64,000 nucleotides of DNA, taken from the NCBI RefSeq assembly GCF_041248615.1, contig NZ_CP158426.1. One strand, 5' to 3'. The stretch comes from Escherichia coli. GTDB lineage: Bacteria > Pseudomonadota > Gammaproteobacteria > Enterobacterales > Enterobacteriaceae. Under the pieces are notes generated by a model. It was not told where the DNA came from and ran no database searches. It was given only the letters and a program-made list of their open reading frames with translations. Made by a program: the position numbers and the translations under genes. This document shows positions 18,729-63,990 of the stretch, piece after piece; positions within the stretch are counted from its first letter, which is position 1, and each line of letters opens with the position of its first letter.

Positions 18729-19312
18729 GAGCCGCAGAGGGGAAGTTGCGTCCATTTTTTGAGGAATGGAGCAAAAAATCATCACAGATATAAAAAATCA
18801 ATCAATGAAAGCCATTTAATTGCCGGTGCATTGTGGATGCAGTCCTCATGGTACGTAACCAGAGTTGAATAAACATCCATTTTTTTGTGTTTTTTTAACC
18901 TCCCCGGGTTTTTAATTCCTGTCGATTAAAAGTGTTAGATTATTTGGTTAAGAGTTCTCTCGTCCTATTTATTCAGGCGTTATCACGGATATGCAGATCG
19001 CTAAGTCAGTTGTAAGAAAACCAGACAGTGCACATCATTATACCTAGGTCTTCTCTGGAAAAATACTTAGGAATAATTTATGTAAAACAGGTTGTCGTCT
19101 TCATGATTTAAACGCAGTACATATATATACTCTATAATAAATACAGGGAGTATCACGAGACGTCTGGATAAGAGGAATAACCAGAATAAATTGGTAAGGA
19201 ATAAAGACACTTATTTCTATTGAGAAAAAACATTCATCCTGATGTGATTAGTATCAATGAAATAATGTGCTTGTATGGTTGATAAAAAATGCATCACTAA
19301 AGAAAAAACAGT

Positions 19313-22300
19313 ATGAATAAGAATATACGAATTTTACAATTTCTGGTCAGTATACTTTATTCTGTGCAGTCTCATTTTTCTGGTGCGCAAACAATACAAC
19401 TGAATGGTAATGGTATACCTGAAAGTATAACCAGGAGTATTACAGGTGTTGATGGAAACGCGGCGCTTAATATCAGCGTGCCGTATAAAACAAGTTATAC
19501 TCAAAATATACTATCTGTTGAAAGCAGTATTAACATCAAAGGAGGAACAAGCAATACATCAATCGGTGGTGCAGGTGTCTACGGTGAAAACTTTACGCTA
19601 AATAATAATGGTAGTGTTTGGGGAGGAGATGGATATAATGGTGGAATTGCTGTTAGTGGCAACAAAATATCTATAAACAATTACAGAAATGTATATGGGG
19701 GTAATGGTCTTGGTGGCTCAGGAAGTAGCGGAGGTGCAGGGTTAAGCGGGGATGATATTATAGTTGATAATTACAGAAGTATATACGGAGGTGATGATGT
19801 AGGTGGGACAGGTGGTTCCGGTGTAACCGGTAGCAATATTACAGTGCATAATTCCGGAGGAATATTGGGCGGTAATGGCGTAAACGGTGGTGATGGTATT
19901 AATGGTAGTAATCTTTTCATTACTAACGACAACATGATATCTGGAGGATATGGAATAAAACAAGGGGGAGATGCTATTTCTGGAAATCAAATCACTTTGA
20001 ATAATAACGGTATTGTTCAGGGGGGATATGGCCCCGACGGTGGTTGCTCTGTTTATGGAGAAGATATCCATATTAATAATCATGGTAATCTTTCAGGATT
20101 ATATAATAGCCAAAAAGATGCTTATAATACATCAATAATTTTTTCTGGCGGGTATAATTCATTAGATATTTATTCAGATTCTGTGATTAATGGTGATATT
20201 AAACTAGCTAGTATACCTGTTAATGGTACAAATGAATTAATTATTAAAAACATCAATAACGCAACAGCAATTAATGGTGGGCTAATGATTGGGAATGGCT
20301 CATCTGTTTATCTGTCAGGCAAGAACTCCATTTTTAACGGAAATATAAGTATTGATGAAGACGCATCTATGAACCTGTCTGTAGGAAATGCTAATGTTCA
20401 CGCAAATACTATTACATTAAAAAGTGATTCATGGCTTAATATAGACACATCAATTAAGAACTGGACTCAGGACTATTACACATTATTGTCGTCAGACACA
20501 GGTATCTCGATCGCTGATAATAGTCACATTGTACAATACAATGTATTACTGACAGAAGGTGCTGAAAGTTATGTTTATACGTCTTTAAATGACGACGATA
20601 ACAAACTGATATCCATGCTGAGATGGAATAATACAAAAGGGATGGGATATGGAACCTTTAATATAGAAAAAGATGCCACTCTGAACATAGGCGTTTCTCT
20701 TTCCGATAATCTTTCACCTTTATTATATGATGGCTGGGACGGCAAAAGTCTGACAAAATCAGGTAATGGTACTCTTATACTTTCTGCAACAAACAATTAT
20801 ACAGGAAATACAGAGGTTAAATCTGGCGTATTAATTCTTGCTGCACCTGATGCTCTTGGTCGGACTGAGTATTTATATTTATCCCGTGGCGCAGAACTGG
20901 ATATGAATGGGTATCCTCAGACAATAAGCAAACTACTGACGGCTGCAGGCTCTGTGCTGAACATTCATGGCGGAAGTCTGATACTGAATAATGGAGGAGA
21001 ATCTGCAGGTACTATTGCAGGGGATGGTTCTCTGAACATAAATGGGGGAATGCTTGATATAACGGGTAATAATCGTAATTTTTCCGGTGTTTTTACCGTG
21101 AATAAGGGGGCTCATTTGGCTGTATCCACGGCTGATAATCTGGGGACAGCCTTTGTTGATAACTATGGCACATTAACTCTGAACAGTACATCAGCATGGC
21201 AGCTTACCAACAATATCAGTGGTTATGGTAATGTTCGCAAGACGGGAGCAGGTGCACTGAACATTAGCGATAACGCAAAATGGACCGGGATGACAGATAT
21301 TATTCAGGGGACAGTGATACTGGGGAACGCAGATTCACCGGTGATGCTCGGCAGTAACCAGGTCATTGTTGAAGAGCAGGGCAAACTCTCCGGGTTTGGG
21401 GGCGTTGCAGGAAATCTGAGCAATAGTGGTATAGTCGATCTCACTACATATATGCCGGGTAATATACTGACTGTCGGAGGGAATTACACTGGCAGAAATG
21501 GACTTATTCTCCTCCAGACAGAAACAGGTGGTGACAATTCGAAAACAGATCGTCTGGTGATTAAAGGTAATGCCAGTGGCCGTACCCGTGTCGCTGTTAC
21601 TCAGGCCGGTGGTACTGGTGCAGAGACACTTAATGGGATTGAAGTGATTCACGTCAGTGGCAATGCTGATAATGCTGAATTCATTCAGACGGAACGTATT
21701 ACAGCCGGAGCTTATGATTACATACTGAAACGTGGTCAGGGGATTAACAGCACTAACTGGTATCTGATTAGCAGAAAAGACATTCCTGTACCACAACCTG
21801 AAGCTGTACCGGAAAGCCATGATAATAATTTGCGTCCTGAGGCAGGTAGCTATGTTGCCAGTATTGCTGCTGCAAATAATCTGTTTGTAACGAATCTGTA
21901 TGAACGACAGGGACAGGAGTTGTATATCAGCCACATGACAGGAGAAGAAAATGAAGCAGGTATCTGGATGTATAATAAAGGAAAACATAATCGCTGGCGT
22001 GACAACAGTAGTCAGCTGAGAACCCGGGGGAATAGCTACGTTGTGTTAATAGGGGGAGATATAGCTCAGTGGAGCCTGAATGGTACCGATCGCTGGCATA
22101 CAGGTATGATGGCTGGCTATGGTCATAATAATAACAGTACGAATGCCCTGAGCACCGGATACCATTCGGAAGGAAGAATGAATGGATACACAGCGGGTCT
22201 TTATGCAACATGGTATGCCAATGATGAAACACACAATGGTTCTTATCTTGATAGCTGGCTGCAATACAGCTGGTTTGATAATCATATAAATGGAGAACGG

Positions 22301-25486: not shown

Positions 25487-25581
25487 TGGCGGAAGATCAC
25501 AGGAGTCGAACCTGCCCGGGACCGCTGGCGGCCCCAACTGGATTTGAAGTCCAGCCGCCTCACCGGAGACGACGATCTTCC
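25487..25581 (-). tRNA. selC: tRNA-Sec (selC)
   Basis: The reverse complement reads GGAAGATCGTCGTCTCCGGTGAGGCGGCTGGACTTCAAATCCAGTTGGGGCCGCCAGCGGTCCCGGGCAGGTTCGACTCCTGTGATCTTCCGCCA. This is the 95-nt E. coli selC sequence with anticodon UCA. Confidence 0.97.
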
Positions 25582-44775: not shown

Positions 44776-44795
44776 AACTGTGTTTATATACAGTT
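44776..44795 (-). promoter_or_regulatory. LexA box of dinD
   Basis: The minus strand reads AACTGTATATAAACACAGTT (CTGT-N8-ACAG), 44 bp upstream of the dinD ATG. This matches the known dinD SOS box position. Confidence 0.85.
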
Positions 44796-44953: not shown

Positions 44954-44974
44954 TTATTCAATATTCTGAATCTG
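44954..44974 (-). pseudogene. yicC: Displaced 3' tail of yicC (last six codons + stop) marking the left junction of the inserted element
   Basis: The minus frame reads ...AALKPILYK QIQNIE*. K-12 YicC ends ...REQIQNIE as I remember it. Similarity stops upstream of QIQNIE, so the identity (att core) is about 21 bp plus downstream sequence. Confidence 0.5.
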
Positions 44975-45442: not shown

Positions 45443-45730
45443 TTACTGTCTCTGGCAATCTTTATCGCGATAACGCCTGAAGTACCCTCTCGCTTCCTCA
45501 TCCATACCAAGAGCCGAATGAGTCCGCTTAACTGCCTGTCTTAAATCTCCGAATCTGTCTGTAGTTGCTGGTGGGCGTGCCGCCTTACGGATACATTCAG
45601 AGCGTCTGTTTGCTGCATGTTCACGTTCTTTATCGCCATCTGCCAGCATCATGACTTCTGCCCATCGTGCGGCAGCTCTCCGGTATAGCCCTTTTGACTC
45701 CAGCTCTTCAGCTTTCCTGTCCCTTATCAT
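45443..45730 (-). CDS. PerC-family transcriptional activator
   Basis: 95 aa. MIRDRKAEELESKGLYRRAAARWAEVMMLADGDKEREHAANRRSECI... is the PerC/Pch signature (AEELE.KGLYRRAA.RW). Confidence 0.75.
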   Translation of the reverse strand: MIRDRKAEELESKGLYRRAAARWAEVMMLADGDKEREHAANRRSECIRKAARPPATTDRFGDLRQAVKRTHSALGMDEEARGYFRRYRDKDCQRQ

Positions 45731-46459: not shown

Positions 46460-47437
46460 TCAATCGCTCCCTTTCCGCCCTTCAGCTACAGGGTCGTTGT
46501 CGGCGATAACAAAACCTAAGTCCTGAGAGAATCTCTCTCGTGGGAATCCTTTAGCAGGTAAACCCATTGAATCATATCCACATCCGGGAACATTTGGTTT
46601 AGAGTCAATAAGGTCTGCAATTTGCCGAAGCCATGTTGATCCCGGACCAAGTCGTTTAACTAAGTACCAGATAATACAGATCGCGCTAAAAATCCTCTCG
46701 CAACTCTCTGGATGGAGATTAAGTCCGTCAAAGTATTCATTATCCGGTACTGGAACTCGGGGATGCTTTCTATTCCATATTCTGGAATGGTGAGCGCAAC
46801 GATTCCTTATGAGATTAAGGCACTTCAACCATTTTGCAAATGTCTGCTTATTATCAATGCCAAAACGACGTATAATTTTCCCCTGCATATGACCATTAAG
46901 CATCGCATAATATTTAGACATCTGACCAAAATCCCAGGTCTCCACCGCCACCCAAAATGGAATCTCCTTGCCTTGGCTTCGATGCCATTCAATACAGTCA
47001 TCTCTGCTTTCGTCTAATTTTACTTTTTGCTTATACACCCAATGCTCGAAGGCAGATGAGAATTTTGGATTAATGTATTTTGATGACATGTAGGCAAGTG
47101 GATCATTGCGACCAACCTCATGCGCGATGACTGAACGAACATGAATCTCTATTCTTTCGATAGCATCAATCATCAAAAGACGCAGTTTTTTGTCAAAAAG
47201 ATATAGATCGTACGTCTTCTCGAAACTGGTACCAGCAAGAAATCGGTCTGTTCTGTACGAAAGACCTTTATCTGTTGTCGCAATAATTCTTGATGGGTAC
47301 CAAAAACCTGACAATCGATAATATCCAACCTGCGACAGCTTACGTATCGCACGATTTCGATCATTGATAATCATGCCACGTTCAAGTAGCAATCCTAGCA
47401 ATTCGTGATAGTCCTTATGAGGCTTTGCGGCAATCAT
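46460..47437 (-). CDS. Abi_2 (AbiD/AbiF-like) abortive-infection family protein
   Basis: MIAAKPHKDYHELLGLLLERGMII...YYRLSGFWYP...FWVAVETWDFGQMSKYY...LNLIRNRCAHHSRIWNR carries the hallmark R/N..AHH.R.WN motif. The track ORF starts 15 codons upstream. Confidence 0.8.
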   Translation of the reverse strand: MIAAKPHKDYHELLGLLLERGMIINDRNRAIRKLSQVGYYRLSGFWYPSRIIATTDKGLSYRTDRFLAGTSFEKTYDLYLFDKKLRLLMIDAIERIEIHVRSVIAHEVGRNDPLAYMSSKYINPKFSSAFEHWVYKQKVKLDESRDDCIEWHRSQGKEIPFWVAVETWDFGQMSKYYAMLNGHMQGKIIRRFGIDNKQTFAKWLKCLNLIRNRCAHHSRIWNRKHPRVPVPDNEYFDGLNLHPESCERIFSAICIIWYLVKRLGPGSTWLRQIADLIDSKPNVPGCGYDSMGLPAKGFPRERFSQDLGFVIADNDPVAEGRKGSD

Positions 47438-48170: not shown

Positions 48171-48309
48171 ATAAAGCGGATATGCGCGTACTGTAACGGC
48201 CCCATCAACTGGGAGCGGATTTGAAATCCCGACCCAAGCTATGTACCAAATGCCATGTCTTGGATATATGATGATTGCCATTCTAAACAACGCTAAAGGG
48301 AGGGTTGGT

Positions 48310-48708
48310 GTGAATCAATTGAAGCGATTGGTTGTCTCCGGTTTATTATTTGCTTCTTTTGGAGCGAACGCTGAATGCTGGATTATTGGTGATCTGAAAG
48401 GACAAGAAGCCTCAAGTTCAGATGGGTATAACTATAAGTTATCATCTATACCAGATACCTTTCATTTGGTAATAAGTAAAGAGAAGGCGGATCTTATCTT
48501 GGCAAAAGATGGTATAGGTGGAGGTATTGATTATTACCCGCTATCTCCGAATGCCATGATGGGAAGAAGCTATCGAGATGGTCAACTGACGCTTGTCACA
48601 TGGGCAATCTCAAATGACGGAAAAGTGATCCATACACGAACAATTAGTCGATCTGATATAGGCTCATTTACAGGCTCATTTGTCGGCAATGTTAAAGGCA
48701 AGTGTTAA
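48310..48708 (+). CDS. Secreted 132-aa protein of unknown function
   Basis: GTG start, 6 nt after AAAGGGAGGG. The signal peptide is (M)NQLKRLVVSGLLFASFGANA|ECWIIG. It is low-GC and I recognise no family. Confidence 0.6.
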   Translation: MNQLKRLVVSGLLFASFGANAECWIIGDLKGQEASSSDGYNYKLSSIPDTFHLVISKEKADLILAKDGIGGGIDYYPLSPNAMMGRSYRDGQLTLVTWAISNDGKVIHTRTISRSDIGSFTGSFVGNVKGKC

Positions 48709-48770: not shown

Positions 48771-50876
48771 TTATTGAGCTTCCTTTTGCGATGCTTGTGC
48801 TGCTGTGGTCAGTGATTGTGTGACCGTACTGATCGCTCTGTCATATGCTGTGCTACCTTTTGGCGTATTTGCCAGACGTAACAAGGCATTTCGTATAACA
48901 GGGCTTTCGTATGCCTTCGCTGCTCCGCCTACGGCACCAGCAGCAGGAACAACAAACGCAGCCGTTTTTAGCATCCCCGCTAATACTGCTGCGTTTATGA
49001 TGCCACCACCAACTAACAATCCATAAAGCTGCTGACCATTTAAGTTTTGAACGTTCGCTTTTGCCGCGTGTCTTGTATCGTTGAGGTATTTAATAACGCC
49101 GTCCAGTTCCTTTCCATGTACGCCTTTAAAGAAAGTTGCTGATTGCTTCCTGTTCCGGTGTAACGCATTAATAAACTTCTCAACACTGATATTTCCAGAC
49201 GGATCAGTCGCCTTATCTACAGCATTCTGAACTATAGCTGCTCGTGCGTTTTGCCTACCATTGTCATCCAGAAGCCTGTAAAGCTGAGAACGTTCTGATG
49301 GGCTTTGGCTAAAAACGAGTTTTGTTACATCCTCAGGCGTGGCCTTGCCGCTGGCTATTGCCTTTTGAACGCGCGTTCTTCCCATCATGTCATTGAATTT
49401 AGACCATGAGCGATCAACCCTTGCCATATTAATGGCTTCGTCTGCTCCAAGATTTTTGGCTACGGCTTTTTTCATATCCGCCGTATATGCCTTGTAGATA
49501 ATATCGCTGGCTTTCTGGAGCGTATCTTTATCAACAGTGTCAGATGACGCCATAAATCGCTTTCGAAGATCGGTTCTGTTTTCCCTCGCCAGACGCAGGT
49601 CATTTGGTCCGCTGGTGATATCGTCTTTAAATTGCTGCAAGACTTTTACCGCGGCTCTATCCTGAGATTTGCCCGGGCGGCTTAACACGGCAATCTGATT
49701 GTCGATAGCTTTTACCGTGTTTGAGAGATCGACAGGGGTATCCCCCATAGCGTCAATTATGCGGTTATATCGCTTTCCTGCTGCCTCAATGAATTTTTGT
49801 TGCCCTTTAGTCGCAGATTCATAAAGCTGTTTATCAGAAATGCCACCCAGACCATCGCTAAATGTTCTGACTAAATTTTCTCGTGCTTGTTGTTGATTCA
49901 GCCGATTCTTACCGGTTCCAAAAAAAGGAACTCTTTCGCCTAATGTCTGAGCCTGACTCTGCATAAAGGTTTTATCTTTCAACATGTCACTGGTCATTAA
50001 CGGCAGATTTCTTTCCGATGCAAAGTCGACAGCAGCCTTTGCTTCAGGCGACATATCACCACGAACAGCCCTCGAAACCGCACTCGCTGTATTTTCCAGC
50101 CCCTTACCAATACCACCAATGCCAGCAGAAATTACCGTTTGTAACGGATCAATATCTTCTCCACCAGCAAGGCTGGTGGCTCCCTGTAGTGCTAAATCTG
50201 TAGCTGCTGATTTCCCTATGGCCCCCAGCACCGTTCCGGCCCTGCCCGCTGGTGTAAACGCCAGCGCATTAGCCAGAAACGATGCCACGTCTTGCGGCGA
50301 TAAACCCGGCTTGTTCAGAGCATAATCACCGGATGGCAGGGAAACGATAGTGTTACCCTTCTCATCCTGCCTTAATTTCGCTCCCATGCTCTGAAGAATC
50401 TTTTCCTGAGATGCGTCAGAGCCGAAAAGTTGAGACCATCGAGCTTTTAGAGCATCCATGCTGAGTGAGGTTAACTCTGGGGCAAGGTCGACATTTTGCA
50501 GTCTCTCCATCTCTGGAGTCATTCGGCTTTCGCCTGTTATAGCATCGCGCATCGCAGCCCCAAGACTGGCTCCCTGTTCTGCTGAACGCTCAAGCCCCTC
50601 TCTTTGCTGAGTAGCTAACTTTGCATACCCTGACGCAAGAGAATTATCAGATGATGTATGTTGAATATTTTGAGTTGCTGATTGGTATCGGTCTATTTCA
50701 TTCGTTGATGGTAGTGGATAGGCAGCATAAAAAGCCTGCTTAGCCTGCTCTACACTTTCTCCGGCTTGCGGGGCAACGACTTCATTAAAGTATTGCTCCT
50801 GAGCCTGCGCTTTTTGTTCTGGTGCTAACGCCTGATACTGTGGAGAGGCGATAACATCTTTCCATGCTTTAGCCAT
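48771..50876 (-). CDS. P22 gp16-like ejection (DNA-transfer) protein candidate
   Basis: 701 aa and the last gene of the operon. It has ...KPGLSPQDVASFLANALAFTPAGRAGTVLGAIGKSAATDL... and a Gly/Ala-rich hydrophobic segment near the C-terminus (LLVGGGIINAAVLAGMLKTAAFVVPAAGAVGGAA). Position and size class match P22 gene 16. Confidence 0.5.
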   Translation of the reverse strand: MAKAWKDVIASPQYQALAPEQKAQAQEQYFNEVVAPQAGESVEQAKQAFYAAYPLPSTNEIDRYQSATQNIQHTSSDNSLASGYAKLATQQREGLERSAEQGASLGAAMRDAITGESRMTPEMERLQNVDLAPELTSLSMDALKARWSQLFGSDASQEKILQSMGAKLRQDEKGNTIVSLPSGDYALNKPGLSPQDVASFLANALAFTPAGRAGTVLGAIGKSAATDLALQGATSLAGGEDIDPLQTVISAGIGGIGKGLENTASAVSRAVRGDMSPEAKAAVDFASERNLPLMTSDMLKDKTFMQSQAQTLGERVPFFGTGKNRLNQQQARENLVRTFSDGLGGISDKQLYESATKGQQKFIEAAGKRYNRIIDAMGDTPVDLSNTVKAIDNQIAVLSRPGKSQDRAAVKVLQQFKDDITSGPNDLRLARENRTDLRKRFMASSDTVDKDTLQKASDIIYKAYTADMKKAVAKNLGADEAINMARVDRSWSKFNDMMGRTRVQKAIASGKATPEDVTKLVFSQSPSERSQLYRLLDDNGRQNARAAIVQNAVDKATDPSGNISVEKFINALHRNRKQSATFFKGVHGKELDGVIKYLNDTRHAAKANVQNLNGQQLYGLLVGGGIINAAVLAGMLKTAAFVVPAAGAVGGAAKAYESPVIRNALLRLANTPKGSTAYDRAISTVTQSLTTAAQASQKEAQ

Positions 50877-52297
50877 TAATCACCCCATAGTGAAGAAAAG
50901 TTACTGCTGGCTGCTGGCTGTGATACCTGCTCAGATTGCGGCAATGTCTGCGACGAAGAAGCAGTTCCTCTGTCAACTGCTGAAATAACCCGCAAAGCAT
51001 CATAAGTTCGACCAGAAGCAGCTTTCAGCGAATTGAACTGGTTTTCCATCTTCCGGCGCTTGGTATCAATGGTTTTTGTGGAGTCGCCAGGCTGAGGGAA
51101 ATACATTTGATAATATTTTGACATTTCAGCAGGTGCGATAGCTGCCCCTGTTTCCTGACGGAGTATTGCCATTATTGCGTCATTAGCATTAACAACGTAT
51201 TGCTGCTCTGCTGGGCTGAGCGTTAAGTTAGCCAGCGTCCCATTACCCAAAGCATTATTAATGATCGCCACTCGCTGTGGGCTAAGCTGGTCTTTCAGTG
51301 TATCTATTGAATCAAGAGCATCCCTAACCCTGTATGCAAATCCAGCAGCTTTTTTAGCCCCATCTGGCGACTTTTCCATGATCTTTTGGGCTGTTGGCAA
51401 AGCTATTGGACGAAACCCATCTCCAGATATTGGCTGGTTTAGTTTTCCCTGCTCTTCACTTCCGTCTGTGTAGTATTTTGTGACAGTGCCATCATCGTTT
51501 TCTCTAACACTCATTAATTTTTTGGCGTTTGTATTAATTCCAGCCGCTGCCGCAAATGCCGCCGCCCCCTCTGGATCCGCCTTTAACATTTGAGCGTACT
51601 GATTGTAATTCTGCATTGCTGCTGTTGGTGCATATGCTGACGTTAACGCATTTGCTCGGTTAATATCCTGCCCTCTCGCCTGAAGTGCTTCGCTGGCCTG
51701 ATTGCTGCGGATTGTCTCTGCCAACTTGCCACGTTCAATATCCCGACCTTCCATTTGATCTTTGATATCGAAATACTTCTCATGACCGAGAGAAAACAGT
51801 GCCATACTACCAGCAAGCCGCTGGAATCCCTGTGGATCATTAACATGCATTTCGGCAACAGACTCAGGAGAAATTCCCAGGCGACGCATTTCATCTTCGT
51901 TATCTGCTATGAATTTTCCAAATGCCCCAGTTCCGAGCGAAGATGCGATTTGAGCACTAGTCGCAAGATGACCAATAGAATTTCTCTGGTCGTCATCAAT
52001 AAAGCCCATCCCTTTCTGAACGCTTTCAAATTCTTCTGGATACTCAGAAATAAGACTGCGCATTTTGTTTCTGTCTCCAGACTCAAAAGCCCCGGCATAT
52101 GCTTTCTGAAACTCTGCTTTACGCTGTTGTTGACGTGCCTGCTGATTAATCTCAGCAACGCCTCTTAGCCCCTGTAGCGCCATTAAACCTACGTTTGGCT
52201 GCTGCTGATACTGCACAGGCTGAGGAACGGAAGAACGAGGAGCATTATCATTTTGCGGTGCCATGCTAGGCAGCCCGCCAAGTTGCCATGTCGCCAT
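50876..52297 (-). CDS. P22 gp20-like ejection protein candidate
   Basis: 473 aa (P22 gp20 is about 471 aa from memory). The N-terminus is Gln-rich. It overlaps both neighbours by 1 nt. Confidence 0.5.
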   Translation of the reverse strand: MATWQLGGLPSMAPQNDNAPRSSVPQPVQYQQQPNVGLMALQGLRGVAEINQQARQQQRKAEFQKAYAGAFESGDRNKMRSLISEYPEEFESVQKGMGFIDDDQRNSIGHLATSAQIASSLGTGAFGKFIADNEDEMRRLGISPESVAEMHVNDPQGFQRLAGSMALFSLGHEKYFDIKDQMEGRDIERGKLAETIRSNQASEALQARGQDINRANALTSAYAPTAAMQNYNQYAQMLKADPEGAAAFAAAAGINTNAKKLMSVRENDDGTVTKYYTDGSEEQGKLNQPISGDGFRPIALPTAQKIMEKSPDGAKKAAGFAYRVRDALDSIDTLKDQLSPQRVAIINNALGNGTLANLTLSPAEQQYVVNANDAIMAILRQETGAAIAPAEMSKYYQMYFPQPGDSTKTIDTKRRKMENQFNSLKAASGRTYDALRVISAVDRGTASSSQTLPQSEQVSQPAASSNFSSLWGD

Positions 52298-52974
52298 TAG
52301 AATCCAAGCCCCCCAACAAGACCAATAAGCCCACCACCAATAGCGCCGGCCGCAGTTCCTATTCCAGGAACAACGGAACCAAGTTGCGCACCCGCTAAAG
52401 CGCCTGATGCTGCCCCACCAATACCACGCGCAAGACTGGATGGCTGCTGCGCCTGACCTGCACGAATAGCGCCAAGCCCCTGCAAGAGTTGTCCGGTATT
52501 ATTGGCGTAGTTTTGCCCTGCCGTTGCCTGCCCTGATGCCGCATTCATCCCGACATTTAGCAGGTTTCCATAATTTTGCATTTGCCCACTAAGCCAATTG
52601 TTATAAAGCATGGGCGCAATGGAAGATAACTGGTTACTGGTAGCTGTTGAGCCAAGCCCCCCGGTAGCTTCTGCTGAGACAAGGTTCTGATAACGGGCCT
52701 GATCTGCCTGTGTTTTATATAAACCAGAACCAAAGAAATCATTCGCGGCTTTATTCTGCCCTTCCAGAGTCATCAGTCCTTGTAGTTGTTGTAAAGCAGG
52801 CAATCCGACTTCTGCATACGGCTTGAGATTATTCATCACCGTATTCCACTGCTCGCGCTGCAAATCAATTGCCTGCTGCTGGGCCTTCGCCTGAGCTTTA
52901 GAGGCACCACCATCACCGCCTTTTTCGTATACGGCACGATTGAGATGTTTATGAGCTATATGGGTAATTAACAT
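52297..52974 (-). CDS. P22 gp7-like ejection protein candidate
   Basis: 225 aa (P22 gp7 is about 229 aa from memory). ...YEKGGDGGASKAQAKAQQQAIDLQREQWN... and the Gly-rich C-terminal tail GIGTAAGAIGGGLIGLVGGLGF resemble gp7-type DNA-transfer proteins. Confidence 0.55.
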   Translation of the reverse strand: MLITHIAHKHLNRAVYEKGGDGGASKAQAKAQQQAIDLQREQWNTVMNNLKPYAEVGLPALQQLQGLMTLEGQNKAANDFFGSGLYKTQADQARYQNLVSAEATGGLGSTATSNQLSSIAPMLYNNWLSGQMQNYGNLLNVGMNAASGQATAGQNYANNTGQLLQGLGAIRAGQAQQPSSLARGIGGAASGALAGAQLGSVVPGIGTAAGAIGGGLIGLVGGLGF

Positions 52975-53429
52975 TCGCTGAATTCCTTATATTGTTGCCG
53001 AGTTAACTGATAAAGCGTTACGCCGACGGGTTTACCACATCTGATATAAGCATCATCAAGGTGACCAACACGGGTAGCGCCAAGCAAACGGATAATTGCC
53101 CGTCCGTATTTCGTGGTGTCAGGAACCATAGTGATGCTGTTAAGGAATGGTGAGTTTTCGAGAAGCCATTTGCAGAATAATCGATGCCCTTGCAGTGCAT
53201 ATTCACCACGGAATCCGGGGTCGTACACCGCATGGCATTCAACAATGCTATGCCAGAAGTTACGCACTTCATGAACGCCAGCCAGCACCAATCCTTCGTA
53301 GATGCCGAGATATACCGCATCAGGCTTGATGTAGTACGTGTGCCCCGGCTCAACAATATTTTCGGTATTGCCAGGATCGTTAAGAAAGGCCTGTAATCGC
53401 ACAGGGTTATCAATAAATTTTAGTTCCAT
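52968..53429 (-). CDS. 153-aa protein in the position of P22 gene 14
   Basis: It precedes the gp7/20/16-like genes with a 7-nt overlap. MELKFIDNPVRLQAFLNDPGNTENIVEPGHTYYIKPDAVYLGIYEG... looks like a small alpha/beta (acetyltransferase-like) protein. The assignment rests on synteny only. Confidence 0.4.
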   Translation of the reverse strand: MELKFIDNPVRLQAFLNDPGNTENIVEPGHTYYIKPDAVYLGIYEGLVLAGVHEVRNFWHSIVECHAVYDPGFRGEYALQGHRLFCKWLLENSPFLNSITMVPDTTKYGRAIIRLLGATRVGHLDDAYIRCGKPVGVTLYQLTRQQYKEFSEC

Positions 53430-53445
53430 GCGATGCCATCCATTT

Positions 53446-53607
53446 TCACATACAGCCTGCCAGCGCCTTATCTATTAACCCTCGAGCAATTTCATGCAGA
53501 GTTGGCGCTACTCCAATTCCTGATTTTTTACGCTGCTCTTCCTGAATTTTCTTTATCGCTTCCATTTGCTTCTCACTTATCAATACCGGCTTTACTGAAA
53601 TAGCCAT
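53446..53607 (-). CDS. 53-aa ribbon-helix-helix-like protein, first gene of the operon
   Basis: Below the ORF-track cutoff. ATG lies 5 nt after AAGGGGG. The sequence is MAISVKPVLISEKQMEAIKKIQEEQRKKSGIGVAPTLHEIARGLIDKALAGCM, with a strand-helix-helix pattern like Arc/Mnt. Confidence 0.55.
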   Translation of the reverse strand: MAISVKPVLISEKQMEAIKKIQEEQRKKSGIGVAPTLHEIARGLIDKALAGCM

Positions 53608-53620
53608 AACGCCCCCTTAG

Positions 53621-53646
53621 AACTGTATAAAACAACAGTTATTATA
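53621..53646 (-). promoter_or_regulatory. Perfect -10 (TATAAT) immediately followed by a LexA box (AACTGTTGTTTTATACAGTT)
   Basis: The minus strand reads TATAAT (53646-53641) and then a 20-mer with CTGT-N8-ACAG (53640-53621). It lies 13 nt upstream of the RBS and ATG of the 53-aa gene. The -35 is poor. Confidence 0.65.
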
Positions 53647-53702
53647 GTTTCACAAATCGCAATATTCATCATCGTAATTGCAAAATATGAAACAGATAGC
53701 AC

Positions 53703-53735
53703 AAAAAAATGCCACCGCTCAGTAGCTGGTGGCAT
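53703..53735 (-). terminator. Rho-independent terminator ending the primase operon
   Basis: The minus strand has ATGCCACC-11 nt loop-GGTGGCAT followed by T6-7. Confidence 0.7.
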
Positions 53736-54191: not shown

Positions 54192-56951
54192 TCATTCTTC
54201 AGATGAGTTATAATCTCCTGGCTGGTAATTGAGTACATAAACGTTTATTTGTCGTCCCTGAATACGTGGTGATTTTCTTTGGTATCCACGACCGCTGTTT
54301 GGTGGGGTTAGCATCCCGGCTTTTTTCAACACTTCAGCAAACTGTTTTGCGTTGAAACCACATGCGATCTCCTTTTCAAATGTGGCCGGGAATGTGTAGA
54401 AAATCATTGGGCTTTCGTCATGTTCTCCACGCTGACGGTATCCGGCTAAATCTTTGATGGGCAAATCTGCCGGGCTGTATGGAAATGGTGCAAAACGGCT
54501 AAGCCCATAGGCATTAAGAAATGCCTCCGTTTGTTCAATAATCTGCTGATGCTCTTTGTTACCTGTGCCGAACTCGCGCAACCATGCGTTATAGCTGTGC
54601 TGTATCGCATCACGGCATGTCTGAGCATCCCAGCCTGTTACAACCTCGCCTAACAACAATGCGGCCTCCAGAATGGCAAATCGCGCGGCTACACGGTGAA
54701 CCTGCTCACCATAATCGGATGGGATCAGGCTTCTCCATCTGCTTTCGCAGTCACGAACGGTTTTAATAGCCTGTTGCTGGTGGTCTGCCAGCCATTTAAT
54801 CCACTCACGCCCGGACGCGCCGTGGTGATGCTGGTAAGCGTCTTTCAGTGCGTCTGCGTGCTGTTTTCCGTTCTGGTAATCGTGAAAGCGTACTGCTTTA
54901 CTCAACGGAATATTCAGCAGTCGCACCAGTTGCCCGGCTTTGGTTTTTCGCCCGGAAGTAGCGATAAATGTTTCTAAATCCATTTCTCCGGTGCTGATTG
55001 CCACTGTACGCCAGCGTTTTAGATCCCGGTTTCCACCATCTTTAGCGCCTTGCAGTTTCCCTACACCGTTAAATAACGCATAGGCAGACTGTGAAACGCT
55101 GACAGGATCAGCGCCCTGACCAACTTCATCAAGCGGCATTAGTCCGTCATTGTGGGCGGCGGCCTCATTTGCCAGCCCCAGCGCGGTTCCGTACCACGTC
55201 AGCCGCAGTAAATCAGGGTTGCCGTATAAGCTGCTCGCCACGTTTGCCGTGGTGGTCTTACCTGCGCTCGACTGCTCATAGAAATGAATGCCGAACCCGT
55301 CAGCGCCCACCAGCCCAATCAATGGCGCTGCCAGTGCTGCGCCGATCCCGGTCATCATTGAATAGTTACCAAAGGCCAGACGCGCCACGTTATCACGCCA
55401 GCTTTTCGCGCTCCCTGAGACGGTATATCCGGCTGCGGCTGAGCTTCTCCCGCTGAACAGCACAGGATTTTCAGGTGTTCCGATGATTTCCCCATCAGGC
55501 ATGATGTACGCTCCGCATTGCCAGCCAGTGGCATGAGCAACACGCCACAATTCACGAGAGCCACTGCGTTGTAGCCAGTCTGCCAGTATTGCTCTGAGGC
55601 TGCTTTTGGTCGTGACATTTACCCCACCAGCTTTAAGTGTGCGCCATCCTTCACGTTCACCAATATCAGCCAGTGGAATGGCAGCGGTTGTCGGCGTTTC
55701 AGAACCAAACGACAGCCAGCGAAGAATGAGATACTGGTCTTTATCGTCTCTGCCAGTACCGATAACGCTTAACGGAGAACATAACCAGCTTTCGTTATTG
55801 ATGATTTCTCCACTCTGGCTGTCAGCTCTCGGAGATACCCAATAAATACCATCCTCGCGGCTTTCTATTCTTGGTTTCAGTGGATCGGTATCCATAACCT
55901 TAAAATCGCTTCCCTCAATGGTCTGTGGCTCCTGTTTCACGCCATTACCCTGTGGTTGGTACATTGACTTATTGAACGCTTCTGTGGCGCATTTAATGCC
56001 GTGTTTTTGGTGGTAATCATTCCAGTCTGCTTTGTGATCTGTCGGGGGTAATGCCACCCATCCAGAAACAGATAAAGCTGCTTTTTCTGCTGCTATTCTC
56101 CCCGTGTTTTGTCTTCCTTCGCTGTGGTCGTTATCCGCAGCAATGATGATTTGTGCTGAAGGAAATTTATCCCGCAGTACCTGGGCGACATATAACAGGT
56201 TCCCGGCATCAATCGCCGCCACTGTCAGCGCCTCTGGACGAATTAAATGGGCAGATAATGCCGTTGCCAGCCCTTCTGCGATTAAGATGCTCTGTGTTGT
56301 TTCTGGTGCGTTTATGGCGTGATATGCCCCCCGCTTTGCTGAACCTGTCAGGAGTCTTTTTTCACCATGTGAGGTAATAGTCTGTGCTGCTGTGACTGCG
56401 CCGGATTTATCCACCAGCGCCAGCAACAGAGATCCATCGGGCAACACGGGGAATGTAAAATCACCTACCCCTTTCGCAACCAGATAATCAGATTTGCCGT
56501 TTACAGCCTTTCTGCGCATGTCATCAAACTGACGGGAAAACGTATCCCGTCTTTGTTGTTCGTCCTTCTCTGCCCTTTTCAGGCGCTCCTGTTCGCGTCG
56601 CTGGCGCTCGGTTTCCAGTTGTTCCCGTTTCTGGCTGGTGGCTTCTGGTGTTTCCGTTGTCCGGTAATCAATACCCAGAACATCAGCGGCAAGAAGCGCC
56701 GCCTCTGTTGTGTCGCAGTTATTTACGCGTTTAATTAAATCCAGCCCATCACCAGCGCCGCACTGATTACAGATGAAGCTACCGCGCCCGTTGTCATCGA
56801 ACCGGAATCGATCTTTGCCCCCACATGCAGGGCAGGGAGCATGACGGCGCGGAGAGTCAGGGACATTTATGTTCAGGCAGCCCAGCACATGAGGCCAGTT
56901 GTTTTCAGACGCACTGATAACCTGACGGATAAGATCAATGTTTCGCATCAC
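54192..56951 (-). CDS. P4 alpha-like primase-helicase (Zn-ribbon + Toprim + DUF927/SF3-type NTPase)
   Basis: 919 aa with Zn-binding CPACGGKDRFRFDD...FICNQCG. Toprim motifs are ILIAEGLATALS and IIIAADNDHSEGRQNTG. Walker A is YEQSSAGKTTT. Confidence 0.85.
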   Translation of the reverse strand: MMRNIDLIRQVISASENNWPHVLGCLNINVPDSPRRHAPCPACGGKDRFRFDDNGRGSFICNQCGAGDGLDLIKRVNNCDTTEAALLAADVLGIDYRTTETPEATSQKREQLETERQRREQERLKRAEKDEQQRRDTFSRQFDDMRRKAVNGKSDYLVAKGVGDFTFPVLPDGSLLLALVDKSGAVTAAQTITSHGEKRLLTGSAKRGAYHAINAPETTQSILIAEGLATALSAHLIRPEALTVAAIDAGNLLYVAQVLRDKFPSAQIIIAADNDHSEGRQNTGRIAAEKAALSVSGWVALPPTDHKADWNDYHQKHGIKCATEAFNKSMYQPQGNGVKQEPQTIEGSDFKVMDTDPLKPRIESREDGIYWVSPRADSQSGEIINNESWLCSPLSVIGTGRDDKDQYLILRWLSFGSETPTTAAIPLADIGEREGWRTLKAGGVNVTTKSSLRAILADWLQRSGSRELWRVAHATGWQCGAYIMPDGEIIGTPENPVLFSGRSSAAAGYTVSGSAKSWRDNVARLAFGNYSMMTGIGAALAAPLIGLVGADGFGIHFYEQSSAGKTTTANVASSLYGNPDLLRLTWYGTALGLANEAAAHNDGLMPLDEVGQGADPVSVSQSAYALFNGVGKLQGAKDGGNRDLKRWRTVAISTGEMDLETFIATSGRKTKAGQLVRLLNIPLSKAVRFHDYQNGKQHADALKDAYQHHHGASGREWIKWLADHQQQAIKTVRDCESRWRSLIPSDYGEQVHRVAARFAILEAALLLGEVVTGWDAQTCRDAIQHSYNAWLREFGTGNKEHQQIIEQTEAFLNAYGLSRFAPFPYSPADLPIKDLAGYRQRGEHDESPMIFYTFPATFEKEIACGFNAKQFAEVLKKAGMLTPPNSGRGYQRKSPRIQGRQINVYVLNYQPGDYNSSEE

Positions 56952-60953: not shown

Positions 60954-61385
60954 TTAGGCGGCGTTAAACGCGTCCGGGTAGAGTTTCAGAATGTCGGCAA
61001 TTTCCTGCTGAGAAAGTCCGTTGTGATCATTTATGTTCGCAAGATGGTTAACATGAGTGATCACTTTCAGAACATCACCACGGCAGGAGAAACGGTAGCG
61101 AAGGTGTGTTCCGATACCATCAGGATTCTTTTCGTCGATACGCTCCAGAGTGATTCCAAGCTGGCGTTCTAACTCTGTTGCATAGTTACGACCAGAAGAC
61201 AGACGGCAGTAGCGAAGAATGTCATTTTCTGTCCATCCCTCTATACCAGTACGCAGCATATAGACTCGGGCACGATGCTTTTTCGGTGTGCGCTTTGGTG
61301 CTTGAAGGGATTTTGTAAGGGGCGTAATATCAGATACGCGAATATCTGAATTAGCCGCCTGTAATGGGCGGTTTTTCTTTTCCAT
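60954..61385 (-). CDS. Hypothetical protein (143 aa)
   Basis: Overlaps the AlpA-like gene stop by 1 nt. The N-terminus is basic. No family recognised. Confidence 0.5.
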   Translation of the reverse strand: MEKKNRPLQAANSDIRVSDITPLTKSLQAPKRTPKKHRARVYMLRTGIEGWTENDILRYCRLSSGRNYATELERQLGITLERIDEKNPDGIGTHLRYRFSCRGDVLKVITHVNHLANINDHNGLSQQEIADILKLYPDAFNAA

Positions 61386-61603
61386 CAGGCCACCTTCCCG
61401 CGGCGTTCTGCCAGCCAGTTATTAATTTCCACCGCATCAAACGCAGTCACGTTATCTGTTAGCTTCACTGGGCGTGGAAGAGTGCCATTTTTAACCCATC
61501 TATCAATAGTAGGCAGTGAAACACCTAGCAATTCCGGCATGCGAAAGCGACGGATGTATCCAGTTGTTGGGATAGCTGATGATGCTGGCTTGTGTGCTGT
61601 CAT
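61385..61603 (-). CDS. AlpA/Vis-like excisionase-type regulator
   Basis: 72 aa. ...YIRRFRMPELLGVSLPTIDRWVKNGTLPRPVKLTDNVTAFDAVEINNWL is the AlpA family signature. Confidence 0.8.
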   Translation of the reverse strand: MTAHKPASSAIPTTGYIRRFRMPELLGVSLPTIDRWVKNGTLPRPVKLTDNVTAFDAVEINNWLAERRGKVA

Positions 61604-62074
61604 ATCTCTAGTAACCTCTCTGATAGCTCATGAAGTTACTTAAAGTTTAGTGGTTGCCCATACAGTATTTCTATTAAGACTAGAATCTATTGAAAGAAAT
61701 TATAAATCTATTGAAAAAATACCGATCCACTGAAAGATTGCAAATGCAGGTGGGATAATTATTTTCTTTATTTTCAATTAGTTACCAGTTTAAAAAATCA
61801 TTGTTTTATCAAAGAGTTATATCTTTCATCGTCATTCATCATGTTTTTACATTTCTTTTTATCTTTTATTATTCAATTGGTTGAGTCGGTTTATAATGGC
61901 TCATGATGGCTTAAAATGGCTAATGATAGCTGGCGTATCTTTTAGAGATGGGGTGATTACAGATGAACTAAGCCGAACAGATATAGCAATGGCTAGGCAT
62001 AGAATTATCTATGCTGGTGGAGATGGGTAAACAGGTAATGCCCCGCCATTGCTTTGGAGGGGCGTGAAAAGTGA

Positions 62075-62725
62075 TTAGTCGAGATCGTGGACAGCTAATA
62101 AAGCCCGTGAGATTTTTTCTAGGAATGTGGCTTTTGCTATTCCTTTATGGGATATCCCTTCATCCTTGATTAAGGTTTCTATGTCACGGTATATAGCTGT
62201 GCGATTAGGTTTCCCATTTTGGATGTAGGAAGATGAGCCTGATTTTTTTATCAGCAGATGTACTATCAACCCCATCATTTTCATTGTCCCGTTTTCCTCA
62301 TCCTGCTTTCTATGCTGCCCACGTCCGCTGCGGTTGGTTTCTTTGATGTAGTTTACTAACTGGAGTCCTCCAAGGTTTCGGGCTTTTTCTTCCCAGCCCT
62401 TGGTGCCACGCAAATCATCAATCGCTTCTGATATTTTCTGAACAATTATTTCTGGTGTATTTGTGTCAATAAATGGGTAAGAAGCTAAGAAAATATCAAG
62501 GGCATGGCAAGGCTCGTCTTTACTAGTTTTTTCACCTCTGTACACCTTGATAGCTCTGGCAAGATGAGTTCTGACAAAATCGACATATTCGAAATTTTCC
62601 TCAGGCACATCGCTAATGCGCATAGATGGGTTTAGGCCAGCCAAGGCCACAGCCATTTCATGAGGGGTAATCGATACAGATGAACAAAGCCGTTCGATTG
62701 GCGATTTTCTCAAGATGTTGTTCAC
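62075..62725 (-). CDS. Hypothetical 216-aa protein coupled to the integrase gene
   Basis: The GTG start overlaps the integrase stop (GTGA). GC is lower than in neighbouring genes. No family recognised. The alternative start is Met24. Confidence 0.5.
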   Translation of the reverse strand: MNNILRKSPIERLCSSVSITPHEMAVALAGLNPSMRISDVPEENFEYVDFVRTHLARAIKVYRGEKTSKDEPCHALDIFLASYPFIDTNTPEIIVQKISEAIDDLRGTKGWEEKARNLGGLQLVNYIKETNRSGRGQHRKQDEENGTMKMMGLIVHLLIKKSGSSSYIQNGKPNRTAIYRDIETLIKDEGISHKGIAKATFLEKISRALLAVHDLD

Positions 62726-63990
62726 ATTTGCCTCCGGGCTTTATCGAATGGCGTTACGTTGTAGTCTTTCCCGCTTTCCAGTGCCACCAGCAGATCAGCC
62801 CACTGTGCCAGCGCAGCTTTACGCTCATCAAAATACTGATGGCGGTTATAAATCCCCTCCACACCCTTAATGCGATGATTGAGGCATCGTTCCGCTACGA
62901 CAGGATCAACACCCAATGCTGCTAAATGAGTACGTGCGGTACGCCGGAAGTCGTGAATCGTGAAATTAGGCACATCCGGCATTTCGGCGCGAACCTTAGC
63001 CAGTGCTACGGGTAAAGTGCTTTCCTGAATATGTGGGATCATTCTGTTTTGCATCTTCCTGGCTGGAAGCACCCATGCGCTATTACATGAAAAGGTGTGT
63101 AGCTCTCTCAACCATTCAACGGCTGGGGAAGGTAGAGGTATATCAATAGGGTCTCCGTTTTTGCTGCGTTCTTCCGGCAAATGCCATACCGCACCATCTA
63201 AATCAAACTCTTCCCATCGTGCGGCGCATAACTCCATCTTACGAACGCATAGTGCCAGCAATAGCTTAAATGTCAGTTCGTTCTGGCGGCTGAATCCTTT
63301 TGCGGTGCGCATAGCTTCGAATAGCCTGATAAGCTCATCGCGAGTTAGCCAACGGTCGCGGGAAACCTCTTTACCACCAGCATCAGATACTTCAAACGCT
63401 GAACAAGGGTTTATCTCCAGAGCGTGGCGTTTTATCCCATAGTCAAAGATACGGCGTGTCCAGCGTAATACATCTGTTGCTATCGTTGGTGCTCCTCGGT
63501 CAACGATACCTTTCAACATGTCGTCAATGTGGCGTGGCTTAACGTCCTCCACCTTCATATGCCCAATGCAGGGGTTAATATCCTTATCAATTCTCCGGCG
63601 AAGGATATCGGGATGTTTCCATCTTGGAAGTATCTGGCGCTCGAAGTATTCGGCGGCCAGATCTGAAACGCGCATGGCGTTTTTCTCAGCCTCCATTTTT
63701 GCCAGTGCTTCAGCTTTTCGTTCCTGTTTCTCTGCTGCTACGTCATAGCCAAGAGCAACTCTGGCTGACAGCTCTTTTGCTGTTTCTCTGGCTTTTGATA
63801 GTGACAGTTCGGAGTAAGAGCCTATAACCATAGCCCGCTGCTTTCCTGCGAGCTTATAGCGGAATCGCCAGAACGGGACTGTGTAGTTTTTTGGGTAGCA
63901 AATATAAAGGCCGTTGCCGTCTGCCTTGCCATCAAATCTGTCTCCCGCCTTTATCCATGCGCGGATCTGCATATCTGTGAGTTTTGGCAT
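62722..63990 (-). CDS. P4-type tyrosine integrase of the yicC-inserted element
   Basis: 422 aa starting MPKLTDMQIRAWIKAGDRFDGKADGNGLYICYPKNYTVPFWRFRYKLAGKQR... The catalytic region is HDFRRTARTHLAALG...LNHRIKGVEGIYNRHQY. It starts 10 bp from the window edge. Confidence 0.9.
   Translation of the reverse strand: MPKLTDMQIRAWIKAGDRFDGKADGNGLYICYPKNYTVPFWRFRYKLAGKQRAMVIGSYSELSLSKARETAKELSARVALGYDVAAEKQERKAEALAKMEAEKNAMRVSDLAAEYFERQILPRWKHPDILRRRIDKDINPCIGHMKVEDVKPRHIDDMLKGIVDRGAPTIATDVLRWTRRIFDYGIKRHALEINPCSAFEVSDAGGKEVSRDRWLTRDELIRLFEAMRTAKGFSRQNELTFKLLLALCVRKMELCAARWEEFDLDGAVWHLPEERSKNGDPIDIPLPSPAVEWLRELHTFSCNSAWVLPARKMQNRMIPHIQESTLPVALAKVRAEMPDVPNFTIHDFRRTARTHLAALGVDPVVAERCLNHRIKGVEGIYNRHQYFDERKAALAQWADLLVALESGKDYNVTPFDKARRQM

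Follow-up and report, generated by a model that had tools for sequence, protein, structure and literature searches.

Why does a phage satellite that has no genes for building a virion carry a full set of the proteins with which P22-like phages deliver their DNA? The question is raised by a stretch of 64,000 nucleotides from the Escherichia coli contig NZ_CP158426.1 (assembly GCF_041248615.1), here called the window, in which an integrated island carries homologues of the P22 genes 14, 7, 20 and 16 behind a promoter and a LexA-type operator of their own. The island sits between dinD and yicC and spans window position 44954 to about 64199. The satellites known so far interfere with capsid size, packaging or tails. 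In this paper we describe the ejection-protein cassette and its relatives, and we lean, by no more than a little, towards the view that the cassette is induced by the SOS response and loads satellite-specified DNA-delivery proteins into the particles of a helper, the island being a satellite of P22-like podophages. If true, this would be a new layer in the conflict between helper and satellite, control of the entry step, and it could explain the strong mosaicism of gp20 and gp16. It would also give islands with PerC-type regulators, Abi systems and other cargo a testable entry route into lysogens that exclude the helper.

The ejection-protein cassette

The cassette consists of five minus-strand genes, a leader gene followed by the gp14, gp7, gp20 and gp16 homologues (Table 1). 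A gap of 16 nt separates leader and gp14 genes and the next three junctions overlap by 7, 1 and 1 nt, which gives the order 14-7-20-16 with translational coupling. All four proteins after the leader belong by sequence to the gp14, gp7, gp20 and gp16 families. In BLASTP against P22 the identities are 23% for gp14, 56% for gp7 and 38% for gp20 (N-terminal 212 aa), and the 701-aa protein matches P22 gp16 at 30% over 482 aa (E = 6e-52); the Pfam family P22_gp16 gave no match to this protein at E <= 0.1. A preliminary description, made from the letters alone, had called these genes look-alikes of the P22 block. The packing, sizes and spacing that it gave were found again, the likeness turns out to be true homology by Pfam, PHROG and BLASTP, and the lengths that it gave for P22 gp20 and gp16 (471 and 609 aa) agree with the coordinates of the P22 record, where the order is 26-14-7-20-16-sieA. 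The closest sequenced phage proteins are those of E. coli phage N7 for gp16 (67%) and of APSE for gp20 (52%).

The block of P22 and other Lederbergvirus phages has the same four families in the same order and with the same tight coupling. In the phages, however, it is part of the late operon, with the needle gene 26 on one side and sieA on the other, and late antitermination drives its expression, whereas the window cassette stands alone on a satellite, with its own terminator, promoter and LexA operator and with a leader gene that phages lack. The 53-aa leader protein had been described as resembling ribbon-helix-helix (RHH) proteins. Its AlphaFold2 model (predicted local distance difference test score, pLDDT, 85) is made up of an extended N-terminal part and two helices, a topology compatible with that fold; no family or fold match bears the proposal out. 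Nothing was matched in Pfam, PHROG or PADLOC, the best Foldseek match in the PDB had E = 4, hmmsearch against PDB sequences was empty, and hhalign against P22 Arc gave a probability of 0.3%. The leader gene also has no match among 50,697 phage records, which marks the unit as specific to satellites.

Promoter and operator

The control region indicates that the cassette is a transcription unit of its own with a conserved LexA-type operator. An intrinsic terminator parts it from the primase operon, and an equivalent hairpin and T run stand in the same place in Leclercia and Pantoea relatives. The -10 hexamer is perfect and the -35 weak (ATGAAT, at 17-nt spacing from TATAAT). As the preliminary description had noticed, the LexA-type site directly abuts TATAAT; it spans the expected transcription start, and a G-rich Shine-Dalgarno sequence and the leader ATG follow 3' of it. 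The motif CTGT-N8-ACAG occurs twice in the 64 kb, against 0.71 copies expected, and the other copy is the operator of dinD, an SOS gene. An approximate LexA weight matrix, built from E. coli operators (training sites score 13-26), gave the cassette site 19.2, rank 2 in the window after the dinD site at 23.3. At the same position CTG-N10-CAG, with differing inner bases, is present in five genera (Escherichia, Leclercia, as L. adecarboxylata, Serratia, Pantoea and Erwinia), and a LexA box is found in 14 of 15 loci with P22-type cassettes in the IMG/VR sample described below. With its palindrome and flanks, its overlap with promoter and start and its conservation at the orthologous position, the site has the features of a LexA operator, and we infer that LexA controls the cassette. 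The inverted repeat over the -35 region is a candidate site of a second regulator, maybe the leader protein or AlpA.

Within the gp20 gene there is another LexA-like sequence, CCCTGTATGCAAATCCAGCA (51328-51347, matrix score 17.0).

Table 1. Positions of the island's features in the window
Feature	Position	Strand	Evidence or remark
attR core, 21 bp	44954-44974		blastn, 19,226-bp circle against chromosome; 21-bp overlap between the two arms
PerC-family regulator	45443-45730	minus	cargo end of island
AbiD-type abortive-infection gene	46460-47437	minus	PADLOC 7e-58; cargo end of island
gp16 homologue (membrane-associated ejection protein), 701 aa	48771-50876	minus	PHROG 770 'DNA transfer protein' 8e-162, residues 19-700
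gp20 homologue (periplasmic conduit protein), 473 aa	50876-52297	minus	Pfam Inj_translocase 2e-57; PHROG 917 2e-110, full length
gp7 homologue (ejection protein), 225 aa	52297-52974	minus	Pfam P22_gp7 7e-73
gp14 homologue, 153 aa	52968-53429	minus	Pfam DUF2824 7e-62; PHROG 651 1e-66
Leader gene, 53 aa	53446-53607	minus	first gene of the operon; marks the satellite family
LexA-type operator AACTGTTGTTTTATACAGTT, 20 nt	53621-53640	minus	core CTGT-N8-ACAG at 53623-53638
-10 hexamer TATAAT	53641-53646	minus	perfect; conserved in relatives
Inverted repeat GCAAT-N13-ATTGC	53657-53683	minus	over the -35 region; kept in most genera aligned
Intrinsic terminator GCCACC...GGTGGC + T run	53702-53733	minus	between primase operon and cassette operon
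Satellite primase/helicase	54192-56951	minus	Zn ribbon + Toprim + DUF927; replication module upstream of cassette
AlpA-family regulator	61385-61603	minus	Pfam Phage_AlpA 6e-6
Tyrosine integrase (yicC site)	62722-63990	minus	Pfam Arm-DNA-bind_3, Phage_int_M, Phage_integrase
attL core	about 64179-64199		past the window end; overlaps the yicC 3' end

The island and its relatives

Read from yicC, the island holds the integrase, AlpA, an AntA antirepressor, DUF4222, Ash, small open reading frames (ORFs), the primase, the cassette, a convergent gene for a secreted protein, AbiD and PerC. As had been supposed, virion genes other than the ejection set are missing: family scans of the island found no coat, portal, scaffold, terminase, tail or lysis gene. 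The preliminary description had taken the carrier for a P4-like satellite, with which it does have in common an integrase, an AlpA-type regulator, a large primase with Zn ribbon and Toprim, and defence cargo towards one end. We reject this class. P4-like satellites differ in having sid, psu and delta, none of which was found in family scans of the island ORFs (the four ORFs left unscanned are all below 90 aa), and in exploiting a P2-like helper, while the virion genes carried here are of P22 type and the closest relative has a Lederbergvirus as its proven helper. That relative is EcCIMP1 of E. coli MP1, a phage-inducible chromosomal island (PICI) described by Pick, Stadel and Raivio (ISME J 2025; PMC11773190). 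By its core of integrase, AlpA and primase, its synteny with EcCIMP1 and its lack of capsid, terminase and lysis genes, the island is a member of the EcCIMP1 family.

The two elements have in common the order integrase, AlpA, AntA, DUF4222, Ash, small ORFs, DUF927 primase, leader, gp14-7-20-16 and PerC-type cargo. The leader protein is identical (WP_001018524.1), gp14 and gp7 are 99% identical, and the upstream region has the same promoter and LexA box. They differ in integrase and site (tRNA-Thr in EcCIMP1, the yicC 3' end here), in gp20, which is non-orthologous (48% over the N-terminus only), in gp16, where BLAST found no match and the EcCIMP1 version has an SLT domain, and at the cargo end, where the window island has AbiD. 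The PerC homologue of EcCIMP1 acts as a repressor of the locus of enterocyte effacement (LEE) in Citrobacter rodentium.

EcCIMP1 excises only when the P22-like phage Kapi1 is present, and needs its own integrase and AlpA, the master activator (PMC11773190). Its alpA promoter answers to the helper and not to DNA damage as such, and mitomycin C does not induce it in the helper's absence (PMC11773190). A direct LexA switch would be unusual for a PICI. In the window a weak LexA-like half-site, with GTG for the CTG left arm, lies about 45 nt upstream of the alpA start (61648-61667, score 12.5). A P22-like helper, experimentally established for EcCIMP1, is likely for the window island too, as is suggested by the co-resident phage described below.

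The element family and the presence in it of 'DNA transfer-like' genes are thus already published. The preliminary description knew of no satellite of this kind, which within the literature searched holds for the LexA box and for the idea of a satellite making its own ejection proteins, and not for the family itself. Pick et al. noted the genes, suggested a packaging role for EcCIMP1_017-019 and mentioned, unnamed, EcCIMP1 genes that are up-regulated in lysogens; their text never mentions LexA, has 'SOS' only in a reference title and does not recognize the genes as an ejection-protein set (PMC11773190). Genes downstream of the primase would, on their suggestion, redirect DNA packaging to the satellite. 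Other Gram-negative PICIs have their packaging module at this position, and in Klebsiella relatives a terS-like gene lies in the same leader-led operon. We nevertheless hold a packaging role of the cassette to be highly improbable: almost the whole length of each of the four proteins matches an ejection-protein family, family scans found no terminase, Rpp/Ppi-like or capsid-sizing domain, and P22 ejection proteins have no known packaging role.

Lysogens are also more immune to superinfection by Kapi1 when they carry EcCIMP1, in which no known defence system was found (PMC11773190). This immunity would be explained if the cassette proteins, or the secreted protein encoded next to them, acted inside the cell as a decoy that blocks the conduit of incoming P22-like phage; PADLOC gave no match for the cassette. 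Such a role is very improbable. The ejection proteins are without signal peptides and would not reach the periplasm, LexA repression would keep the cassette off in uninduced cells, when exclusion is needed, and AbiD and the secreted proteins or lipoproteins encoded beside gene 16 are better candidates.

In the window the ORF convergent with gp16 (48241-48708, plus strand; about 146-155 aa) encodes a protein with a signal peptide, in PHROG 2651 and with no Pfam match, and occupies the sieA position of P22. The corresponding place in EcCIMP1, in the co-resident phage and in Kapi1 is taken by a lipoprotein or secreted protein that is unrelated in each case. The proteins encoded at this position are candidate exclusion factors.

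Excised circle and co-resident phage

The chromosome of E. coli NRZ14408 (NZ_LT599825.1) differs from the window by two mismatches over the 29.3 kb compared, both A versus G, at window positions 44963 in the att core and 50787 in the gp16 gene. The assembly of this strain (GCF_900093485.1) includes a separate record, 'phage_14408_2' (NZ_LT599831.1, 19,226 bp), which is the island, circularly permuted. In the attP core of the circle, CAGATTCAGAATATCGAATAA, the left part comes from attR and the right part from attL, so the circle is a recombination product and not a copy-and-paste artefact. Site-specific excision and circularisation, as in EcCIMP1-like PICIs, are in this case indicated by sequence evidence only. 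The ejection-protein block is included in the precisely excised circle.

The same assembly has another separate record, 'phage_14408_1' (NZ_LT599830.1, 41,305 bp), which is a complete P22-like phage with terminase, portal, scaffold, coat, gp4, gp10, needle, DUF2824 and three DNA transfer proteins, as well as arc/mnt/ant, tailspike and integrase. Among the top matches listed it was not seen integrated in the main chromosome record. Circle and phage look like a natural satellite-helper pair caught in a DNA preparation; a literature search on NRZ14408 found nothing on its phage records. Relatives of the leader gene are also found in small non-mobilisable 'plasmids' of 12-23 kb, and the two of these that were examined have the look of excised satellites. 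MP1 with Kapi1 already serves as a genetic system, and NRZ14408, which carries both the satellite and the P22-like phage, offers a ready-made strain pair.

Satellite and helper alleles

In both pairs that can be examined, comparison of the proteins shows satellite gp20 and gp16 to be strongly divergent from the alleles of the helper or presumed helper. Between the window and the co-resident phage the identities are 23% for gp14, 52% for gp7 and 27-33% for gp20, and in gp16 only the first 56 aa align (75%). Between EcCIMP1 and its proven helper Kapi1 they are 83%, 57%, 26% and 24% for gp14, gp7, gp20 and gp16; window gp14 is likewise 83% identical to that of Kapi1. The last 10 or so residues of gp20 and the first 20 or so of gp16 co-vary as discrete junction types (compared across the window and loci L002, L003-L005, L007, L011, L018, L027 and L028), for example ...FSSLWGD with MAKAWKDV... 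and ...YYQAKLKG.. with an SLT-type N-terminus. The window and the co-resident phage have a common junction type, ...FSSLWGD / MAKAWKDV..., and differ in the rest of the proteins. This junction may be an interaction interface or a recombination hotspot.

The behaviour of the satellite alleles fits what Leavitt et al. (PMC10883804) found in P22. Very divergent foreign ejection proteins assemble into P22 and function; gp16 and gp20 require cognate pairing, whereas gp7 is interchangeable. When only gene 16 is non-cognate the particles contain the foreign gp16 and are not infectious, and when only gene 20 is non-cognate no plaque-forming phage is obtained. The prophage protein SieA blocks injection, and mutations that escape it map to gp16 and gp20 (PMC10883804).

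The strongest rival to loading for the satellite's own delivery starts from the same findings. The divergent satellite gp20 and gp16 would be poison subunits that co-assemble with those of the helper, so that helper particles fail to inject and the yield of infectious helper falls, an outcome known from other interference mechanisms of PICIs. It is common for satellites to encode homologues of structural helper proteins by which assembly is disturbed, such as Ccm of SaPIbov5 (SaPI, Staphylococcus aureus pathogenicity island). The satellite alleles are strongly divergent from those of the helper, and a single non-cognate gene 16 or 20 has, as described, just such an effect in P22. We still think interference unlikely. 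The satellite travels in the same particles, so poisoning would block its own transfer; the junction type that the window has in common with the co-resident phage suggests compatibility; and Kapi1 titres are not lowered by EcCIMP1 after induction or lytic growth (PMC11773190).

Selection and allele replacement

The same cassette is found in an island of Leclercia adecarboxylata. Between it and the E. coli island the ratio of nonsynonymous to synonymous substitution rates (dN/dS) is 0.03 for the leader gene, 0.07 for gp14 and 0.07 for gp7, with dS saturated. These three genes are under strong purifying selection. The gp20 and gp16 proteins of the two islands are only 27-30% identical, which points to allele replacement. 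Cassettes have the form 14-7-20-16 or 20-16, the variants with only leader, gp20 and gp16 occurring in E. coli and Serratia, and gp20 and gp16 are always together; the variants show that the two are swapped as a pair. The junction of primase and leader gene is found, at a coverage of at least 80%, in about 328 of 5,426 complete E. coli genomes.

On another reading the block would be inert, what is left of a P22-like prophage after recombination into the island, and the LexA-like sequence would be there by chance. This would account for the pseudogenes seen in some copies, and ejection-protein genes are indeed highly mosaic and exchanged with phages. This reading is scarcely credible and we reject it. 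The selection just described is strong, the block has the same position and leader gene across genera, it lies within the precisely excised circle with no other virion gene nearby, and five genera retain the LexA box with inner bases that vary; the survey of IMG/VR loci also speaks against it. The preliminary description had reckoned with relatives in which the block is flanked by head or tail genes. In every relative examined it instead comes after the satellite primase, as a rule directly and in a few cases with small ORFs between; for the IMG/VR loci treated below, the comparison covered the genes downstream of the leader.

The leader-gene family

A profile search with the leader protein found more than 300 clusters across Enterobacterales. 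In most contexts examined a satellite primase precedes the leader gene, either immediately or with a few small ORFs between; a Salmonella locus (L022) is arranged differently. What follows the leader varies. P22-type ejection proteins are found in Escherichia, Leclercia and Serratia, and sets of 'internal virion proteins' with a transglycosylase domain in Leclercia EMC7, K. pneumoniae and Pectobacterium. Pantoea, Erwinia and Raoultella have a tape-measure protein of 1,188 aa (Pfam TMP_3, 4e-53), accompanied by a small partner but by no further tail gene; in the Raoultella record it is fragmented. A baseplate-hub protein follows in Klebsiella and Salmonella, and lytic tail or transglycosylase proteins in Enterobacter and Klebsiella.

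For a count, 80 IMG/VR loci were classed by BLAST against reference cassettes, with duplicates kept and only the genes downstream of the leader examined. There were 15 P22-type loci, 9 with internal virion proteins, about 14 with a hub and 3 with a tape measure, and further about 10 with transglycosylase sets (hub or not) and about 10 with genes that could not be classed. From this gene content the leader gene heads the late operon of the satellite, and proteins for penetrating the envelope are common cargo there, in roughly two thirds of the loci, and not universal. The cargo would fit three virion types: podophages for gp20/gp16-type or internal virion proteins, siphophages for the tape measure and myophages for the hub.

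The variety of cargo bears on another alternative, that the cassette is insurance and supplies helper prophages whose genes 7, 20 or 16 are defective or mismatched to the host. Foreign ejection proteins do work in P22, and alpA_1 of EcCIMP1, which encodes a second AlpA-like protein, can replace xis, the excisionase gene of Kapi1, for which Pick et al. proposed the logic of an 'insurance policy' (PMC11773190). We regard this as improbable. Defective helpers would usually lack more than ejection proteins, and neither the systematic unlikeness of satellite and helper alleles nor the tape-measure and hub genes in the same slot of other lineages would be explained.

Proposed mechanism

Delivery through proteins of the satellite's own would run as follows. 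DNA damage would inactivate LexA, and the same signal would induce a resident P22-like helper prophage. From the derepressed cassette the satellite would then produce its own ejection proteins, procapsids built by the helper would take these up, and particles with satellite DNA would deliver it through a satellite-specified conduit. The likely pay-off would be entry into cells that block the gp20/gp16 conduit of the helper, that is, helper lysogens with SieA-type exclusion; a more general one would be independence from the ejection-protein alleles of the helper. Escape from exclusion aimed at the helper conduit seems to us the most attractive benefit, since it is in helper lysogens, as recipients, that the satellite can be mobilised anew, and we would still put it on the doubtful side. 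Tentatively, the family as a whole may carry helper DNA-delivery proteins as exchangeable, often SOS-controlled cargo, with which a satellite could choose a conduit that evades the superinfection exclusion of helper prophages and reach lysogens that mobilise it.

The targets or escape loci of SieA, HK97 gp15 and TP-J34 Ltp are proteins that these satellites carry (gp16/gp20 and the tape-measure protein). The link to the island is one that we draw by analogy, no exclusion gene or escape phenotype having been tied to it.

Several observations weigh against loading of the satellite's proteins and against its supposed benefit. SOS-induced expression, incorporation into virions and a selective benefit of the cassette are what we infer. 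Kapi1 transduced EcCIMP1 only at very low frequency (PMC11773190), so the cassette does not ensure efficient transfer. To judge by the P22 hybrids (PMC10883804), helper and satellite gp16 and gp20 mixed in one particle might be non-functional. A BLASTP search for a SieA homologue in the co-resident phage and Kapi1 found none, and at the sieA position of both lie genes for secreted proteins or lipoproteins that are unrelated and belong to no Pfam family, which makes the benefit of exclusion escape a conjecture for these pairs. Several E. coli copies have a truncated gp16 or an internal stop in gp20, and in NZ_CP148430.1, a 12,152-bp circular 'plasmid' of E. coli Z1323CEC0013 and an excised relative, the cassette appears to be lost: there is a leader gene and a very similar yicC-type integrase, and no annotated ejection-protein genes in the PLSDB gene table, which omits pseudogenes. 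This suggests that excision and replication do not need the module, and in some lineages it is decaying. In about 19 of the 80 IMG/VR loci, or about a quarter, only a 90-aa ORF and a terS-like gene follow the leader, and Klebsiella, Enterobacter, Raoultella, Pectobacterium and Leclercia EMC7 have a degenerate LexA box, its half-sites broken or spaced by 9 nt.

Comparison with known satellites

Ccm of SaPIbov5, CpmAB of SaPIs, Sid of P4 and the capsid-forming PICIs have in common with the proposed mechanism that the satellite contributes a virion-assembly component which joins particles built by the helper. They differ in that they act on capsid size or build capsids. The literature searched yielded no satellite factor that acts on the DNA-ejection apparatus or replaces envelope-crossing proteins. 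Nor did it yield a description of a complete gp14-7-20-16 set and LexA-fronted operon on a satellite, of the gp20/gp16 allele behaviour, of the NRZ14408 helper-satellite pair, or of tape-measure, hub or internal-virion cargo; subscription-only papers lay outside this search, and a prior description is possible.

Neighbouring features

The LexA operator of dinD (44776-44795) is about 160 bp from the attR core, and two LexA-fronted units flank that end of the island. Elsewhere in the window, low G+C content (0.31-0.36) at 3001-5000 and 19001-21000, together with a tRNA-SeC gene at 25487-25581, suggests further islands.

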